Source: Candidatus Thorarchaeota archaeon (lineage in GTDB: Archaea > Asgardarchaeota > Thorarchaeia > Thorarchaeales > Thorarchaeaceae). From it: a stretch of 64,000 bases of DNA. A model generated the notes under the pieces. The model saw only the letters and a list, made by a program, of their open reading frames with translations. It ran no database searches and was not told where the DNA came from. The stretch lies in contig JAFGAR010000028.1 of the NCBI GenBank assembly GCA_016933575.1, forward strand, positions 64,001-128,000, written 5' to 3'. This document shows, in pieces, positions 25,840 through 37,630 of this stretch; within the stretch, counting starts at the first letter, position 1, and each line of letters opens with the position of its first letter. Both the position numbers and the translations under genes were made by a program.

Positions 25840-26790
25840 ATGGGGACAGTGACTAAGGGGAATCTTATAGTGCCAAAGGCAATCTTTTCCATTTGGTGGG
25901 ATGATAGATTAGGACCAATGGTCGGTCGATCCTATCCCGAGGCTGCACCACTGACAAGTGAAGAGGCTGTCACCGTGTTCATGGGACATGGCGTAAATCA
26001 GGAAACAGAGATAGGATATTCAAAGATACAGAGCGGTCTAGTAATTTCGTATATGCGACCACCAAATTGCCTTGTTGTGCTTCTTGAGCAAGGCGAAAAC
26101 AGTGCATCTATCGAACGTAACTTGTTGCGTTTAGCTCCCACTATAGATTTTGATAGTGATAATTGGGATAAAGAACTAGAAAAGGCATTTCATGGGTTAA
26201 AAGATTTAATCACTGAGACCTCTGGTGAAGAACTGCTATTGAATCCAAGCGTGAAAATGTTAGTTGGAGATATGATGTCAGGAAGATTACAGAAAATTAT
26301 TCCGAAACATGTTCTAAAGGCGACAGTGAGATACCCTGAGGCTCATCAATACCTAGGTAATGATGACGATGAGGTCTCAAGGCTGTTAAGAGACCTTGAA
26401 GATGAAGAAGTATTGGAATCCCGAACCTTTGGGCGTAAGGTTGAATGTCGACAATGTGGAAACTCTGATCTCTTGGTGGAATTGCAGTGTCCTACCTGCT
26501 ATTCTAGTGATATCCACAAAGTGTACACAGTATTTTGCCCAAAGTGTAGCAATCAATTTCATGCAGTGATTGTAGATGATTTGGCAGAGGTGACATGCGT
26601 CAATTGTAAACAGCCAGTGAAAGTCAATGAACTTGCTGTAATTGATGTCGAGCCCCTATGTAATGCATGTGGAACAGCTTCGAATGATCCAAAAATAGTA
26701 TTCAGATGCGCTACTTGTGGAAAGCAACTTAAAGGAGCAGATTTGCTTTCGGGGACTGGTCTGGCATATTATTTTAGAGTATCAGGTTGA
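25840..26790 (+). CDS. Longin (uDENN/NPR2-like) domain fused to wHTH + multi-CxxC (TackOD1-like) region
   Basis: AIFSIWWDDRLGPMVGRSYP resembles the F(x)3-4[DH]xxxGPxxxxxxP longin signature. LLRDLEDEEVLES helix, then CRQC, CPTC, CPKC, CVNC, CNAC, CATC. Start may be GTG 25870. Confidence 0.65.
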   Translation: MGTVTKGNLIVPKAIFSIWWDDRLGPMVGRSYPEAAPLTSEEAVTVFMGHGVNQETEIGYSKIQSGLVISYMRPPNCLVVLLEQGENSASIERNLLRLAPTIDFDSDNWDKELEKAFHGLKDLITETSGEELLLNPSVKMLVGDMMSGRLQKIIPKHVLKATVRYPEAHQYLGNDDDEVSRLLRDLEDEEVLESRTFGRKVECRQCGNSDLLVELQCPTCYSSDIHKVYTVFCPKCSNQFHAVIVDDLAEVTCVNCKQPVKVNELAVIDVEPLCNACGTASNDPKIVFRCATCGKQLKGADLLSGTGLAYYFRVSG

Positions 26791-28087: not shown

Positions 28088-29692
28088 CTATGCTTTCTTG
28101 CTATTTCCTTTCTTTATTGTTTTTTGAACAACTTTTCTTGCATCCTTCAGTATCTTCTCAGCTCGAGCAATTGTCAATCCATCAATCTTCTGAGCTAGAC
28201 GTTGTGCAGTTTCACCTGCAAGCTGAGCGGCAGAATCATAACCTGCCGAATGCAATTTCTTCTCTAGAGCTTCGCCGATACCAGGCACACTTCTAAGTGG
28301 CAGTGAATCCTTCAGTTCAACACCAAGTATCTCACTCATGTCACTGTCACTAATCTCAGAACCAGCATCAATGATATCCAATTGACTCTTTATCGATGCA
28401 AAATCATCAGCACCAACAAAGGCATCAACAGTCTTCTTGACCTGACGTTCATCAAAATCAAGTGCAAGCTCTTCTATTTCGATTTCCCTTCCAAGAATAG
28501 TTGGAAGTGGTCCAATGAGATAGAGAGCAATCAGCGAAAATAGAATAGCGAATTGACCACCAACTGCATAGACAACTGAAGGAATATGAAATTGAATTCC
28601 AAACACTAATGAATTGAGATCAACAGCCCAATAGAGAGCCATAAAGCCTAGAAAGAAGAACCAGACTAAAGATAGACGTAGACCTTTGGATTTCACTGAC
28701 CCCAGTTCAGGCCAAATCAACAGGAGATATAGACCAAGAAGATAACCCTCGATAAAACGCTCCGAACCTAATAAGCTAATCAACAGAATTGTTAGGTCTG
28801 GATCTAGAAAGTATGCATTGTACAAAGCTGATCCGAAAATGGTCAAGAGACCCATTAGTAGAAGACTGAAACTGAATGCTGGCTTTCGACCTCGTATGTC
28901 AGAGATAAAACCAGCACAGAGAATTCCAATAATTAGAAGTGCATACTCCAAGTATTGTAGATTCACCAACTGGGGTAGAGAAACATACGATGGATCTCCA
29001 AAGAAACCTTGTTGAATTGCAAGTTTTGTAACCATGTACCATAGTAGATAGGAGGCCATGATGAGTACTGTAGGTATAAAGTAGCGAATAACAGTACCAG
29101 ATGCAGCGAGTGAAACACGAGGTTGTTTCCAAGGCCTTAGACCTACTGTTATGAAGACACTAATCATAGCTATGAGTGCAGGTACTATTAGAATTGATGA
29201 GTTGATAGTCAGATTGATCTGAGGTAGTATGGCATATACAGCTGACAAAATCACAGCTAAAGCAAGGAAAAGAGCTGTGCTACGACCTCTATATCTTACA
29301 ATAATGCTCTGGTTAACACGGATAGTCCAAAAGACCAATAGTGATGATAGACATGCAAATGAAGCGATGACTAGCACAAAATCAATACTCTCTACCATAT
29401 CCAATGAGAGCGTTGTTAATTTCGTTAATCCTAAAGATGCCGGGATAATCGATACGAGTATTATTAGTGGATCAAGTCGTTTGACTCGATCTGCGACAAT
29501 ACCTGATAATGGAAGGGTGAATACTCCAGCTAATGCTCCATAGCCAAGCAATCCATGATGCTCAAGCAGAGTGAGCTCAAATAAAGTACCAGAGATTAGA
29601 TTCGTGATGATGAATATGCAAAATGCAAAGGGGGCTGCAAAGAGTAGAAAGATGATAGTAGTCTTTATTGGAAATTCTCGATATTGAAGCAT
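28088..29692 (-). CDS. MFS-like polytopic membrane protein fused to a C-terminal helix-hairpin-helix domain
   Basis: About 12 TM segments with SGIVADRVKR and AGFISDIRGRK. Acidic linker, then LRSVPGIGEALEKKLHSAGY..KIDGLTIARAEKI (RadA N-terminal-like HhH). Confidence 0.75.
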   Translation of the reverse strand: MLQYREFPIKTTIIFLLFAAPFAFCIFIITNLISGTLFELTLLEHHGLLGYGALAGVFTLPLSGIVADRVKRLDPLIILVSIIPASLGLTKLTTLSLDMVESIDFVLVIASFACLSSLLVFWTIRVNQSIIVRYRGRSTALFLALAVILSAVYAILPQINLTINSSILIVPALIAMISVFITVGLRPWKQPRVSLAASGTVIRYFIPTVLIMASYLLWYMVTKLAIQQGFFGDPSYVSLPQLVNLQYLEYALLIIGILCAGFISDIRGRKPAFSFSLLLMGLLTIFGSALYNAYFLDPDLTILLISLLGSERFIEGYLLGLYLLLIWPELGSVKSKGLRLSLVWFFFLGFMALYWAVDLNSLVFGIQFHIPSVVYAVGGQFAILFSLIALYLIGPLPTILGREIEIEELALDFDERQVKKTVDAFVGADDFASIKSQLDIIDAGSEISDSDMSEILGVELKDSLPLRSVPGIGEALEKKLHSAGYDSAAQLAGETAQRLAQKIDGLTIARAEKILKDARKVVQKTIKKGNSKKA

Positions 29693-29786
29693 AGTACTCT
29701 CTCCTAAGCCTAATTCATGCTGAAAATAATGGAATATGGATGTTTCGCATTCAAATCCTTTTCTGGAAAATATTGTGTTTACATGC

Positions 29787-29830
29787 GATAGCTTAAAGAC
29801 CTCTCAGATTTGGGAGAGAATAAGGAGTGA
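29787..29830 (+). promoter_or_regulatory. Putative BRE/TATA and RBS for the longin operon
   Basis: GATAGCTTAAAGA (29787-29799) and AAGGAGTGA (29822-29830) ahead of TTG 29837. Confidence 0.5.
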
Positions 29831-29836
29831 ATAGAA

Positions 29837-30739
29837 TTGGTTGGTAAACTCGGCGTTAATGAATTCATGGTTCTAACATCAGGGGGTACACCAATCTTTC
29901 ATTTCTCACGAACAAAGACAAGAAAATTGGATGATCTACTTTCTGGATTCCTGAGCGCAATAACTAGTTTTGCCACTGAATTAGGAGAGCGGTCGATTCA
30001 GAGTCTTTCTTTTGAAGGATCAGAACTCCTCTATGAACAATATGAGAGTGATTGTCTCTTCATATTTCTTGTAGAAACTAATTCTTCTGAGAAGGTTCTT
30101 CGAGCTGTCCTTCGTGAATTAAGTAGGAAATTCATGGCACGTTATGAAAATGAACTAAAAATGGAAATACCAATACTTGACGTCTTCATGGATTTTGAAC
30201 ATGAGGTCAAAGGCGTATTCACATACTACGAGGGAATCTTACTGGTAATGTCTAGCCTCAGTGCGTTCGTTGTCCCAAAATTAAAGACAACCTCAATGAA
30301 CATAGCAATCAGATCAGGGAATTTCCTAGACGAGTTCCATAGAGATTTTGGAGGTTCTGGCAATAGAGCACTTTCAGCAATCGATGGTAAGACATCTCTA
30401 TATGACATGAGTAGAAACCTTGGTCTAGCTCCTGAAGAGATATCCGATGTCATCGAATATCTCGCAATCAGAGGATTGTTATCAATTTCCAAAATATGTC
30501 CAATGATTCGAACAAATGATGCGCGTTTCGATGCATACCTAGATCTTGTGGGACTTCCAAATAAGGACTATCAATTACTCGATAGAGCAAAGAACCTGTG
30601 CAACGGAAACAGAGCCCTTGTGGATATTAGCGAGAGATTGGGAGTTGTGCCAGAGCGGCTTTACGAAGTTCTAGAGAAACTTGGTGAAGAAGTTGAATGG
30701 CGTTTGGTAGATGTTACAGGACTCGTCGAAGATTCATAA
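29837..30739 (+). CDS. Longin + two winged-helix domains (paralog A)
   Basis: FMVLTSGGTPIF..DLLSGFLSAITSFATELG..IQSL (Asgard longin pattern). AIDGKTSLYDMSRNLGL..VIEYLAIRGLL and LCNGNRALVDISERLGV are HTH-like. Confidence 0.8.
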   Translation: MVGKLGVNEFMVLTSGGTPIFHFSRTKTRKLDDLLSGFLSAITSFATELGERSIQSLSFEGSELLYEQYESDCLFIFLVETNSSEKVLRAVLRELSRKFMARYENELKMEIPILDVFMDFEHEVKGVFTYYEGILLVMSSLSAFVVPKLKTTSMNIAIRSGNFLDEFHRDFGGSGNRALSAIDGKTSLYDMSRNLGLAPEEISDVIEYLAIRGLLSISKICPMIRTNDARFDAYLDLVGLPNKDYQLLDRAKNLCNGNRALVDISERLGVVPERLYEVLEKLGEEVEWRLVDVTGLVEDS

Positions 30740-30813
30740 CTAACTCTAAATCTCTAGAAGGAATTAAGTGCATATTTGCAATGAAATACTTGTTGTGATT
30801 AGGAGACCACTCA

Positions 30814-32091
30814 ATGGTCAAAGAGATCATCGTACTTAGAGAAACAGGGATCCTTCTGTACCACTATAGTGTTAGTGGAACAAGGAAACTTGATGAACTG
30901 GTCGCTGCATTTCTTTCTGCTGTTGGTTCTTTTGCTAAAGAAGTAAGTCAAGATAAAATCACAGTGATGTCGTTTGCAACAAATAAACTGGTGTGGGAAA
31001 AGAAAGGCGATCTATTCTTTATCGCGCTTGTTGCTGAAGAAGATAGCGGAGAGATTCACAGAGTAATACTCCAAGATCTTGCAGAGCAATTTGTAAGTAT
31101 GTTCTATTCTGATCTCATGAAAGAATTGCCAGATTCAAAGAGCTTCAGACCTTTTACCGACATAGTTGAAAAAACACTTCACAAATTTAATGGGATTCCG
31201 GGACTTGCACGAAAATACAAAACAATCCTTTTGCCATCTGAGGATTTGAATCGTCTAAAGAAATCGATGGCTGAGGTTGAAGTGAATCGTGATATACTAC
31301 GAGGAGCTTTAGTCACTCACGATGGATATGTAGCTGTATCAAATCTCAGAGCTTATGAATTGGAAGCTGTATTGGATTTCATATCGTCATTTGACAAAAA
31401 CATAGAGATACACGAACACTCAAGTCTAGAAAAAGCTACAGCCTTTCTCTTGGTCAATCTGAAGAAGAAAGGGGTATGTGCATTTGTTATTAACTTAGGT
31501 ATGTCAGAAAAGACATACATAGAATTGGTAAATCCGTTCCTTGCTCTAGCTCAACTCACTAGCTTTGAAGAGGCTAAAAAATTTGAACCAGACAAAGCAG
31601 AGGGTCCAATTTCATTCTATGATTTTGATGGAATTGAACCTATTGTTGCATTGGAGAAAATACAGAGTGAAATTAGTATCATGCTTTCCAGAGCTCCAGA
31701 GAGCGTTCATTCTGGTGCACTCAAACTCCTTGAGAAACTAGAGAAAATGGCCACTGTTGCAGAATTGCATGAAATAATGGGCTTACCAAGAGAGCAAGGA
31801 GATGAATTATTAGCCCAATTGATTGCTAAGAGCATGATCCGTATCATACGGCTCTTCCCTGTTTTGGAAGACCGTGATGAACGGTTTGCGGCGTACCTTG
31901 AAGTCATAGGAATTAAAAAAAGGGACTTTGATATTGTCAATACAATCTGGAAATATTGTAATGGAAGTTATTCTATAAGAGAAATTTCAGAAAGAACGAA
32001 TATTCCAGCAGGTAGAATAATGGAAGTGTTGCGTGTGCTGGGTAACAATGTAACATGGTCAAAAAATAGGGTGTTAAGTCATGTCAGGTAA
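30814..32091 (+). CDS. Longin + roadblock-like + two winged-helix domains (paralog B)
   Basis: IIVLRETGILLY..ELVAAFLSAVGSFAKEV. Central ILRGALVTHDGYVAVSNL is roadblock-like. C-terminal YCNGSYSIREISERTNIP aligns with paralog A. Confidence 0.8.
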   Translation: MVKEIIVLRETGILLYHYSVSGTRKLDELVAAFLSAVGSFAKEVSQDKITVMSFATNKLVWEKKGDLFFIALVAEEDSGEIHRVILQDLAEQFVSMFYSDLMKELPDSKSFRPFTDIVEKTLHKFNGIPGLARKYKTILLPSEDLNRLKKSMAEVEVNRDILRGALVTHDGYVAVSNLRAYELEAVLDFISSFDKNIEIHEHSSLEKATAFLLVNLKKKGVCAFVINLGMSEKTYIELVNPFLALAQLTSFEEAKKFEPDKAEGPISFYDFDGIEPIVALEKIQSEISIMLSRAPESVHSGALKLLEKLEKMATVAELHEIMGLPREQGDELLAQLIAKSMIRIIRLFPVLEDRDERFAAYLEVIGIKKRDFDIVNTIWKYCNGSYSIREISERTNIPAGRIMEVLRVLGNNVTWSKNRVLSHVR

Positions 32092-32833
32092 AATAATCTC
32101 GATACATAGTTTTCGTGGTGGAACAGGGAAATCCAACATTGCCGCGAATTTAGCAGCTTTTGCAGCTTTGCAAGGAAAGAGAGTTGCAGTAATGGACACA
32201 GACATGGCATCGCCAGGTATACATGTCATATTTGGCCTTGGTCGGGAAAAGATGAAGTACACATTGAATGATTACCTTCGTGGCACATGCGATATCACTG
32301 ACACGTGCATCGACCTGACAAACAGGTTGGACATAAAGAAAGGTAAGCTCTTCTTGATACCAAGCTCCATGGCAGCAACTGACATCACTAGAATTCTTAG
32401 AGAAGGCTATGAAGTAGGAGATCTCAAGAAAGGATTTACTGATGTCATAAAGGGAAAAGACCTAGATTACCTGATTATCGATACACACCCAGGACTTGAT
32501 AGAGAGACCCTACTCTCAATGGCTACAGCTCACATTTTATTCGTGGTAGCAAGAATTGATGAACAGGATCTACTGGGGACTGCTGCAACTTTGAGTGTTG
32601 CTCGAAAACTGCAGGTTCCTGAGATTCGTATAATCATCAATAAGAAACCAGGGATCTACGAGAATAAAGCAATAATCTCAGAGGTAGAGTCGAAGTTTAA
32701 AGCACGAGTTGCTACGATTATTCCACTACTACCGCTCCTCATAGAGGTAGGAAGTCGTTTTGTTGTTATACTACGGTACCCCGAAAATGAGTTCACAAAA
32801 AACATTGAGGACATCTACAAGTTGATGCTGTAG
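32081..32833 (+). CDS. MinD/ParA-family ATPase
   Basis: IISIHSFRGGTGKS, VMDTDMASPG, YLIIDTHPG, IINK. Overlaps the upstream gene by 11 nt. Confidence 0.92.
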   Translation: MSGKIISIHSFRGGTGKSNIAANLAAFAALQGKRVAVMDTDMASPGIHVIFGLGREKMKYTLNDYLRGTCDITDTCIDLTNRLDIKKGKLFLIPSSMAATDITRILREGYEVGDLKKGFTDVIKGKDLDYLIIDTHPGLDRETLLSMATAHILFVVARIDEQDLLGTAATLSVARKLQVPEIRIIINKKPGIYENKAIISEVESKFKARVATIIPLLPLLIEVGSRFVVILRYPENEFTKNIEDIYKLML

Positions 32834-35617: not shown

Positions 35618-37630
35618 ATGCCTCATCTTCGTTCATCCCAAGATGGTGACCATCACCAAGTGAGGAATTTAGACATGGCACAAATGAGTACTGTACTTTC
35701 AGCAATTCGCAGAAAGTCAACTGATGACGCGCCCGCGGATATTGTAGGTGTGTTTGCTGGTTTTGGTAGCATCTTATCCATCATCGCGGCCGCTATTGGA
35801 TTGTTAGCAGGAGTCCCACTTATTCCAATAACTTCCACAACTTGGGAAGTCGTAGTGGACACTCCTATTCAATGGAGTATTGCAGGTAATCCTCAGTATC
35901 ATCTGTTTTCAGGAGCATTTATGGGTCTACTCGCAATTGGATTAATCCTTCAAGCTTTTGGCTCTCGTGATTTGAGGGCAAAACTTGGAACCATCTTTGG
36001 TTCAGTGTTGTATGTTGCTTTCCTAGTAGCTGCAGTGATTGCAGTATATGTACTGATTGGATACTTCAATATTAATTATGCATCAGAAATTGGAGGATTC
36101 TTGGCAAATCTGTATTTACTAGGATCCATTTTCGTACTAACTTGGCAAATGGTATCAGTGCTCTATGTCGATTCAAGTAAGACATGGATTGGATTCTTTG
36201 CAGGAATTCTGAATGGATTGTTCATTCCTATCCTTGCTCTAGGTCAAGTACTTGGTCCACTCCTCGTCTATGGAGCATATGCAATACTTCTTGGTGGTCA
36301 ATTATGTGCATTACTCTTCTGGTGGTCTCCAAACAGCACCATTAGAGAGTATGCCAGGAGTCCTGAGAAGGCAAAGTTTGCTTTTGGTCTCGGTGGATTG
36401 CTTACTTTCGCTATTGGGACAGCAGCCGTGTTTATCGGGCCAATCACAACACATCCAACAGGCAGTACCATCTGGAGACCATGGATTACTCTAGCACCTT
36501 CCGGTACTGAGTATGTCACAAATCCAGCATTGATTTTCGGATTTCTAGCTGCCATGGTATTTTGGATTTTGTTATCACCTAGATTAGGCGCAAAGGAATT
36601 GAAGACTGCTGCTATAGGAGAAGACATTATCAAAGGTGGAAGCAAATGGTTTGCTGTTTTCCTTCTTCTAATTGGGCTTTTAGCAGCAAGCCAATCAGGT
36701 ACATTTAGTACCGCAATAGGATCTTGGGGATTCTTCTTGGTCATTGCACCAGCTGGTGCCATGATTCTAATAGGAGCTCTTTATACTGCTAAAACTGATA
36801 TTGTAACAGGCTTTCCACTAATAATCACAGCAGTGCTGATTATGATCAATCCTCACTCCCTAGCAATTTTCGTAATTGCTGGTTGGATGCTAATCCTAAT
36901 TACCCAAGTCTTTCTGACAATAGAGTGTAAAATTCGTGGACTAACTGGTTTCAGTCAGGGAGCTGTAACTGTGCTGATGAGTATTTTGACTTCGATAGTA
37001 CTCATTGTGGTAATGTTTGGATGGTTAGGAAGTGGTCCTCAAGCATTATGGCCAACTAATAGATGGTTCAATATCGCGCTTATTCCAGGAGTCGATCGTG
37101 CAGTTCAGTCAGCATTCATCATCATCATGCCATTCCTAGCTTTGCTCCTTAGAAATGCAGCTTTAGCTGGATTTGCTCACGGTAGAGGATATAGCACTGG
37201 TGGCATTCTAATGGGAATTACGGTGATCTTTGCTCTCATGATTCCAGCGATTGCTGGTAACTTTACAGTAACTCATGAGGCTAATACAGGAGCTGCATTA
37301 TTACTTGCACTCTATGCGATGAGTCTAGTAATGGTGGTATCACTGAACCTCAAGCTAGCTAATGACGTTGAGGAACAAGGCCATGATTTTGAATCAACTC
37401 TCATGAAAGTAGCTTCAATTGGACAGATCATATTTTCAGCGGCAGTTCTTCTCATTGTTCTAGTCTACTTTAGTGGTTTACCAACTCCTGAGGAAATAGC
37501 GTTTGTCATCTCAATGCTAGTTGTATTTGTTGCAAGTTCTGAAGTACTATCAATCATTGGGTGGCTTATCGCAGGTATAAGATTAGGTCTACTGAAGGAA
37601 GGATTCCGATTCACTAGACTCGGTCAGTAG
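35618..37630 (+). CDS. Large polytopic membrane protein, unknown function
   Basis: Roughly 18-20 hydrophobic segments; no motif recognised. Start probably ATG 35675 (GAGG upstream). Confidence 0.8.
   Translation: MPHLRSSQDGDHHQVRNLDMAQMSTVLSAIRRKSTDDAPADIVGVFAGFGSILSIIAAAIGLLAGVPLIPITSTTWEVVVDTPIQWSIAGNPQYHLFSGAFMGLLAIGLILQAFGSRDLRAKLGTIFGSVLYVAFLVAAVIAVYVLIGYFNINYASEIGGFLANLYLLGSIFVLTWQMVSVLYVDSSKTWIGFFAGILNGLFIPILALGQVLGPLLVYGAYAILLGGQLCALLFWWSPNSTIREYARSPEKAKFAFGLGGLLTFAIGTAAVFIGPITTHPTGSTIWRPWITLAPSGTEYVTNPALIFGFLAAMVFWILLSPRLGAKELKTAAIGEDIIKGGSKWFAVFLLLIGLLAASQSGTFSTAIGSWGFFLVIAPAGAMILIGALYTAKTDIVTGFPLIITAVLIMINPHSLAIFVIAGWMLILITQVFLTIECKIRGLTGFSQGAVTVLMSILTSIVLIVVMFGWLGSGPQALWPTNRWFNIALIPGVDRAVQSAFIIIMPFLALLLRNAALAGFAHGRGYSTGGILMGITVIFALMIPAIAGNFTVTHEANTGAALLLALYAMSLVMVVSLNLKLANDVEEQGHDFESTLMKVASIGQIIFSAAVLLIVLVYFSGLPTPEEIAFVISMLVVFVASSEVLSIIGWLIAGIRLGLLKEGFRFTRLGQ

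Follow-up and report, generated by a model that had tools for sequence, protein, structure and literature searches.

Paralogous longin–winged-helix proteins linked to a variant MinD/ParA-class ATPase in Thor- and Hermod-type Asgard archaea

Two adjacent genes in a Candidatus Thorarchaeota genome, within the 64,000-nucleotide stretch of contig JAFGAR010000028.1 that we analyzed (the window, to which all coordinates refer), encode paralogous proteins, here called A and B, that have a longin domain at the N-terminus and two winged helices at the C-terminus. In B, a roadblock domain lies between them, and the end of the B gene overlaps the start of a gene for a variant MinD/ParA-class ATPase. The genes remain neighbors in relatives, and the ATPase shares its phyletic range with the longin proteins. 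The conserved coupling of these proteins to the variant ATPase, and to a membrane protein encoded divergently upstream, is solid. We suggest that the locus is a module of three to four genes, found in Thor- and Hermod-type Asgard archaea, in which a dimeric longin platform binds or regulates an ATPase of the SIMIBI class, and we would give this reading a probability of about one half. A reading of the same DNA from its sequence alone (the sequence-only reading) had already described the locus and proposed that the pair is an NPRL2/NPRL3-like scaffold with a MinD ATPase as cognate nucleoside triphosphatase (NTPase). Its observations are confirmed by our analysis, and its interpretation is partly supported.

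Gene arrangement and paralogy of A and B

The genes for A (29837-30739, 300 amino acids (aa), TTG start), B (30814-32091, 425 aa) and the ATPase (32081-32833, 250 aa) are three tightly packed open reading frames on the + strand. The ATG of the ATPase gene at 32081 lies inside the end of B, whose stop is at 32091, which gives an overlap of 11 nucleotides (nt). The sequence-only reading had reported two adjacent paralogs with common ends and an overlap between the stop of B and a MinD-family start. Every string that it quoted is present at its place in the open reading frames, and the overlapping gene passes the cut-offs of three MinD/ParA-type Pfam families (see below). In BLASTP comparisons, A and B match over the N-terminal 128 aa (34% identity, E 2e-21) and again over the C-terminal 112 aa (27% identity, E 4e-17), a likeness far above chance, and judged by sequence they are clearly paralogs at both ends. 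Two features speak for the TTG start of A: an AGGAG ribosome-binding site (29823-29827), which lies 9 nt upstream and is kept in 23 orthologous upstream regions, and the conservation of residues 5-11 across 15 orthologues.

Predicted folds of A and B

AlphaFold2 models were built on orthologue alignments and compared with known structures by Foldseek and by Z-scored structural alignments. The model of A has a predicted local distance difference test score (pLDDT) of 82.2 and a predicted template modeling score (pTM) of 0.75; the values for B are 78.5 and 0.45. In A, a longin domain (aa 6-139, nt 29852-30253), which Pfam also recognizes as Fuz_longin_1, is joined by a helical linker to a first (aa 160-226, nt 30314-30514) and a second winged helix (aa 227-292, nt 30515-30712). 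B consists of a longin domain (aa 1-126, nt 30814-31191), a roadblock domain (aa 137-250, nt 31222-31563) and two winged helices (aa 280-352, nt 31651-31869, and aa 353-418, nt 31870-32067), all on the + strand like those of A.

That the N-termini would model as longin had been part of the earlier interpretation, and they do so with the element order beta-beta-alpha-beta-beta-beta-alpha-alpha in both models. Residues 6-134 of A align with the VAMP7 longin at Z 15.0, with Sec22b at 14.4 and with the first longin domain (LD1) of Fuzzy at 13.1, and residues 1-128 of B align with the VAMP7 longin at Z 14.9. Taken for both proteins, the longins reach Z of about 14.4 with Sec22b and of 13-14 with SRX and Fuzzy LD1. 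The roadblock-like module previously noticed in B is borne out by its alpha-beta-beta-alpha-beta-beta-beta-alpha fold and by the match of residues 144-252 to the structure of an Asgard Roadblock3 homodimer (9jue_B; Z 11.8, root-mean-square deviation (rmsd) 2.4, 105 residues aligned). The C-termini of both proteins form two winged helices, with an invariant D-x-R-F-x-x-[YF]-L...G motif at the junction; these winged helices are mostly net acidic across both families.

At the level of sequence families, A passes the Pfam cut-offs for Fuz_longin_1 (26.8 bits, cut-off 26.1) and HTH_47 (29 bits, cut-off 27.1), and B passes the one for TrmB (28.5 bits, cut-off 25.6). With the threshold at E<=0.1, Fuz_longin_1 is found in 10 of 15 A members and 11 of 16 B members, Intu_longin_1 in 3 of the 15 A members, and TrmB in 15/16 B and 13/15 A members; it is the winged helices that TrmB/MarR-type models fit. 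DUF742 is not among the Pfam matches listed at this threshold (the best 25 of 31 and of 38 families), and no NCBIfam model matches A or B. Sequence profiles of A and B gave no significant match to chains in the PDB, the best being NPRL2 (E 0.58) and a Thor roadblock protein (E 0.41).

A variant MinD/ParA-class ATPase

The product of the third gene scores above the Pfam cut-offs for AAA_31 (57.8 bits), ParA (53.1 bits) and CbiA (49.8 bits). The closest solved structure is that of Archaeoglobus fulgidus MinD-1 (1hyq, E 2e-16). Against the NCBIfam models for canonical MinD the scores are 73 bits for TIGR01969 minD_arch (cut-off 201.75) and 50.9 bits for TIGR01968 (cut-off 212.9). The P-loop HSFRGGTGKSN (aa 9-19, nt 32105-32137, + strand) is common to 14 orthologues, as are a DTD and a DTHPG motif, and R12, K17, S18, D39-T40-D41 and D134 are invariant among them. 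The signature lysine of the deviant Walker A motif (KGGxxGK[ST]) is thus replaced by an invariant arginine, R12 (RGGTGKS), in the Thor, Hermod-like and Helarchaeota orthologues and in that of the sister family of the source genome. By eye only, no C-terminal membrane-targeting helix was seen, the protein stopping at the last core helix without an extension. The isoelectric point (pI) is 8.9 in the source genome, and over the orthologues the net charge ranges from -4 to +7. On sequence grounds, the ATPase is a distinct MinD/ParA subfamily and not a canonical MinD.

The public labels of two of its close orthologues, P0337 and P0340, seem to be wrong. One of them, with 92% identity, is filed under 'Thermoplasmata archaeon M9B2D', and the other, with 93%, is named a CDP-dideoxyhexulose reductase.

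Conservation of the gene linkage

Linkage was examined by tblastn of A, B and the MinD-like ATPase on 49 loci out of 300 Asgard genomes. We distinguish the family of the source genome (f1), its sister family (f2) and a family with the NCBI labels Hermodarchaeota, Hodarchaeota or 'Promethearchaeota' (f12, Hermod-like). The order A-B-MinD is found in most genera of f1. In six genomes of genus g12, A is directly followed by the MinD-like gene, and B was not found there with this query. The f2 genome has a single B-type protein followed by the MinD-like gene, and a B-type gene precedes the MinD-like gene in all nine of the nine f12 loci. On independent contigs, the order is a divergent HHH_5 membrane protein gene, then B, then the MinD-like gene. 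A lies apart from B in three genomes (G055, G075 and G239). The linkage to MinD on which the earlier interpretation depended is therefore kept, both among the genera of Thor and in another Asgard lineage.

Single-copy orthologues of the ATPase (E<=1e-50) are present in 62 of 76 f1 genomes, in the only f2 genome, in 17 of 19 f12 genomes and in the one genome of a further family, f28; none were found at this threshold in the other 26 families sampled. The families with orthologues are those with full-length A or B, plus one other. Only about eight clusters of full-length B and one of A, at 50% identity, emerged from an exhaustive profile search of 1.8 billion representatives, the remaining matches covering the longin part alone or the double winged helix alone. 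More distant double-winged-helix relatives (P0199, P0267) have no adjoining MinD gene. Loki-type relatives (P0233, P0251) are 360 aa long, and their contigs end close to the gene. In the literature searched, we found no link between a longin or NPRL2-like protein and MinD/ParA in Asgard archaea, nor a description of its coupling to both MinD and a transporter.

In a tree of the shared domains, the A, Thor-B and Hermod-B clades are well supported, and the f2 protein, which has the architecture of B, groups weakly with A (89/73). With the f2 protein so weakly placed, it is no more than plausible that a B-like ancestor was duplicated within the Thor order and that one copy then lost the roadblock domain.

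The single-contig genome G245, one of the g12 genomes, shows a peculiarity downstream of A. The MinD orthologue there (G245:C1:2225160-2225663) matches residues 1-165 only, in a frame of 209 codons, and may be truncated in a lineage that also lacks B.

Other partners of the ATPase subfamily

Outside the Thor and Hermod-like loci, members of the ATPase subfamily have other neighbors. In two Helarchaeota loci (L066:4089-6756 and L067:4118-6753), a RGGTGKS protein with 52% identity follows genes for a tetratricopeptide repeat (TPR) protein of 513-518 aa and a protein of 106-110 aa. Neither partner has an informative Pfam family, and both were rejected as B homologues (hhalign probability below 1%). 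A few kb upstream of these three genes stands one that resembles MCR-alpha. In a metagenomic locus (L086:804-8185), a 54% identical member stands in a same-strand run of genes for a dCache_1 sensor, an 865-aa protein without Pfam match, the MinD-like protein, a DUF7005 protein and a cNMP-binding protein, which looks like a signaling neighborhood. Such swapping of partners across lineages fits a MinD/ParA ATPase that works with lineage-specific adaptor proteins.

Prediction of a complex between B and the ATPase

The structure of a complex of B, two ATPase chains and two ATP was predicted, alongside three controls. The interface score (ipSAE) was 0.50, 0.58 and 0.50, and the best of the three controls scored 0.00. 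The contacts agreed to at least 89% between runs, and the pLDDT of the partner was at least 73. In a calibration, 58 of 80 solved complexes and 2 of 110 mismatched pairs attained the ipSAE mark; only 7 of the 80 solved complexes and both passing mismatches did so at 0.60 or under, the range in which our values lie. Given the coupling of the genes and their synteny, the prediction is modestly favorable and lends weak support to binding of B to an ATPase dimer. The earlier proposal of an A/B scaffold with MinD as its cognate NTPase thus gains from the conserved linkage, and from the complex prediction only as far as a weak pass (0.50-0.58) allows. An A-B heterodimer cannot be obligatory for the family, since Hermod-like genomes and f2 have only the B type, and the six g12 genomes have only A before the MinD-like gene.

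A third conserved neighbor and the divergent intergenic region

Upstream of A and divergent from it lies a gene (28088-29692, - strand) for a membrane protein of 534 aa with the fold of the major facilitator superfamily (MFS), an acidic linker and a C-terminal helix-hairpin-helix (HhH) tail. The tail matches Pfam HHH_5 at residues 465-520 (E 7.2e-9), and the ESM Atlas structure reaches template modeling (TM) scores of 0.60-0.67 with MFS transporters. This protein, absent from the sequence-only reading, is a third conserved neighbor. Its gene adjoins the longin gene divergently in both Thor and Hermod-like loci, and it remains beside A where A is split from B and MinD (G055 and G075). At E<=1e-10, it is present in 65 of 76 f1 genomes, in the f2 genome and in 11 of 19 f12 genomes, and nowhere else in the 300 Asgard genomes, a range that parallels that of the MinD orthologues. 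The source assembly contains a second, partial copy at a contig end (G000:C135:7-1005), with 51% identity over residues 194-529. This copy may be a paralogue, or it may stem from a second strain in the bin, for which contamination is estimated at 6.9%.

The intergenic region between the membrane protein gene and A (29693-29836, 144 nt) contains, apart from the AGGAG, two conserved blocks in opposite orientation, at about 29735-29747 and 29785-29799 (TATGGATGTTTCG and GCGATAGCTTAAAGA). In the alignment of 23 orthologous upstream regions, they appear as TATG.A..TTTCG and GCGA...CTTAAAGA. The two blocks are probably B recognition element (BRE)/TATA elements, one for the membrane protein gene and the other for the A-B-MinD operon. 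A search of the three flanking intergenic regions gave no repeat array.

Two further genes of the window were examined. In Thor genera, and not in Hermod-like genomes, the module is in synteny with the gene of a 316-aa protein (25840-26790, + strand) that ends in a TackOD1 zinc-ribbon output domain (Pfam E 2.7e-17); the N-terminal half of this protein is unassigned and showed no likeness to the longin of B (hhalign probability 0.16%). TackOD1, Mtd, GNAT and AOR, which are all part of the Thor neighborhood, were left out of the module because Hermod-like genomes do not share them. The 670-aa membrane protein encoded at 35618-37630 has no relationship to the product of the 624-aa gene that follows the module in Hermod-like genomes.

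Relation to known longin, roadblock and MinD/ParA systems

NPRL2 and NPRL3 of GATOR1/SEACIT (Npr2 and Npr3), eukaryotic subunits that serve nutrient sensing, are, like A and B, a paralog pair with N-terminal longin and C-terminal winged-helix region. The two form a heterodimer, which binds DEPDC5 and, by means of an arginine finger, is a GTPase-activating protein (GAP) for Rag GTPases. The top 12 Foldseek matches of A are all NPRL3, NPRL2 or Npr chains of GATOR1 and SEAC (E 6e-8 to 5e-5), and NPRL3 (7t3b_C) aligns with residues 6-297 of A (Z 10.7, 257 aligned, rmsd 12.4). B is matched best by Fuzzy, Mon1, Ccz1 and Inturned and, alongside them, by NPRL2/3 (E 1e-7 to 1e-6 in this group; NPRL2/3 chains at 3.5e-7 and weaker). 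Whole-chain TM-scores are low (0.2-0.32) because the relative orientations of the domains differ. Among the 15 A and 16 B members, neither Pfam NPR2 (PF06218) nor NPR3 was found at E<=0.1, and HTH_NPRL3 (PF24064) appears in 5 of the 16 B members with a best E of 0.002, under its cut-off of 27.2 bits. The designation NPRL2/3-like is therefore valid for architecture and fold, not for membership in the sequence family. As regards the longin–winged-helix pair of the earlier reading, the whole-chain matches and the double winged helix stand, whereas the sequence is nearer to the longin type of Fuz, Mon1 and HPS1 than to NPR2. Two differences separate A and B from GATOR1: B has a roadblock domain where the NPRL-specific inserts would be, and neither DEPDC5 nor a Rag partner is encoded at the locus, the linked NTPase being of the MinD class. 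The NPRL-like character as such is not new, as an NPRL2-like family has been named in most Thor metagenome-assembled genomes (Liu et al., 2020).

The tri-longin subunits of Rab guanine nucleotide exchange factors (Mon1, Ccz1, Fuzzy, Inturned, HPS1 and HPS4) are the nearest relatives of the A and B longins in sequence, by way of Pfam Fuz_longin_1, and the G-x-P-[IL]-[FY] turn is a common feature. The longin-roadblock tandem of B (residues 1-250) aligns with Fuzzy at Z 13.8 (216 aligned, rmsd 7.5). These subunits have three consecutive longin/roadblock domains, whereas A has one and B has two, and A and B end in two winged helices and are linked to no Rab.

In the CvnB-CvnC-CvnD conservons of Streptomyces and in MglB-MglA, a roadblock platform, an HTH-like protein and an NTPase are encoded together, with a membrane sensor nearby; the NTPase is a Ras-like TRAFAC GTPase, and the proteins are small and separate. 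At the A/B locus, by contrast, single proteins combine such domains, and the NTPase belongs to the MinD class.

From the side of the ATPase, the arrangement resembles MinDE, ParAB, McdAB, archaeal SegAB and MinD4, in all of which a SIMIBI ATPase with deviant Walker A motif stands beside a lineage-specific partner gene. Here, the partner is a longin/roadblock/winged-helix protein, of a class known to serve small GTPases, and the ATPase has an arginine for the signature lysine, scores far under the cut-offs of the canonical MinD models and has no evident targeting helix.

Discussion

Together, our data suggest a model in which one or two NPRL2/3-like proteins, made of longin, in some cases roadblock, and two winged helices, are co-transcribed with a variant MinD/ParA ATPase, and in which the gene overlap would couple translation of B and the ATPase in Thor. 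The longin and roadblock domains would dimerize, as an A-B heterodimer where both proteins exist and as a homodimer where there is only one. This platform would bind the ATP-bound dimer of the MinD-like protein and act as its activator or adaptor, a role modeled on that of MinE, ParB and McdB for MinD/ParA ATPases and on that of longin/roadblock platforms for small GTPases. The acidic winged helices would make contacts with other proteins, as those of NPRL2/3 do, and would not bind DNA. A likely role for the MFS-HhH protein is that of a membrane anchor, cargo or input, with its HhH tail in the cytoplasm.

Several observations weigh against this model. The complex score for B and the ATPase is in the weak range, and the prediction yielded no interface. 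In G016 and G075, 1.2 and 3.3 kb separate B from the MinD-like gene, and in f2 the MFS-HhH gene is on a different contig from B and MinD. As the whole Thor neighborhood (TackOD1, Mtd, GNAT, AOR) is syntenic, adjacency within Thor is weak evidence when taken alone; and since no more than two or three independent lineages carry the module, synteny and co-distribution provide few independent data points. Finally, the TrmB/MarR-type matches of the winged helices leave room for a role as regulators.

That role can be put in stronger form. A and B may be transcription factors, which bind the divergent promoter through TrmB/MarR-like winged helices and regulate both the MFS gene and the operon that encodes them, the longin and roadblock domains being the sensor and the ATPase merely a co-transcribed gene. 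Prokaryotes classically place a regulator gene divergently from a transporter gene, the TrmB matches are frequent in both families and exceed the cut-off for B, and the MFS-HhH gene stays with A when A parts from B and MinD. We nevertheless consider this explanation improbable: the winged helices are mostly net acidic in both families, the intergenic blocks resemble two BRE/TATA promoters and not an operator palindrome, NPRL2/3, the closest structural analogues, use such domains for protein contacts, and the coupling of B to MinD across lineages, with their co-distribution, would be left unexplained. DNA binding is also at the heart of the idea of a chromosome or plasmid partition-like cassette, with the ATPase as motor, A and B as adaptors that bind a centromere through their winged helices, and the HhH membrane protein as a tether for DNA. 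ParA-type ATPases are normally paired with a DNA-binding partner, as in archaeal SegAB and in ParA-AspA-ParB of pNOB8, HhH motifs bind DNA non-specifically, and the ATPase of the source genome is basic (pI 8.9). Its charge is not kept among orthologues, however, the winged helices are acidic, the flanking intergenic regions are free of repeat arrays, and the upstream conservation looks like that of promoters and not of a centromere array. A partner gene upstream of the ATPase gene, as here, is atypical, and the locus is single-copy and lies within conserved core synteny. We hold partition to be somewhat less likely still than a transcription factor role. The acidic winged helices and the promoter-like blocks lower both explanations.

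A different objection concerns the partner. All solved longin/roadblock platforms that match the models of A and B act on TRAFAC GTPases, and Asgard genomes encode many small GTPases, usually outside the operons of their regulators (PMC10933270). A and B could thus regulate Rag-, Arf- or Rab-like GTPases encoded elsewhere, with the MinD-like ATPase as a separate or indirect partner. Yet the conserved block contains no small GTPase gene in Thor or in Hermod-like loci, the MinD-like ATPase is the only NTPase that tracks the A/B family in both position and phyletic range, and the fold of B with MinD passed, weakly, with clean controls. We hold this possibility to be no less doubtful than that of transcription factors, and prefer the model of a longin platform for the SIMIBI ATPase.

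A bolder version of this model would take the locus for a platform like GATOR1 or Mon1-Ccz1 that has a SIMIBI ATPase in place of a small GTPase as its switch and is wired to an MFS 'transceptor' with HhH tail. Such a module, coupled to a permease and used for sensing or positioning, would foreshadow in archaea the eukaryotic logic of permease, GATOR and Rag with an NTPase of another class. We mention it as a speculation that is unlikely in its full extent.

The scores of longin and roadblock proteins in Asgard genomes are counted as eukaryotic signature proteins. Such regulators are usually not in operons with GTPases (PMC10933270), and because operons with NTPases are rare, their partners can almost never be deduced (PMC10933270). 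An NPRL2/3-like family with a fixed NTPase and a fixed membrane neighbor in two Asgard lineages offers concrete candidate binding partners. If the coupling is physical, longin/roadblock platforms would not be confined to TRAFAC small GTPases, the MinD/ParA family would have a new class of partner, and the finding would bear on the origin of sensing modules of the GATOR and Ragulator type.

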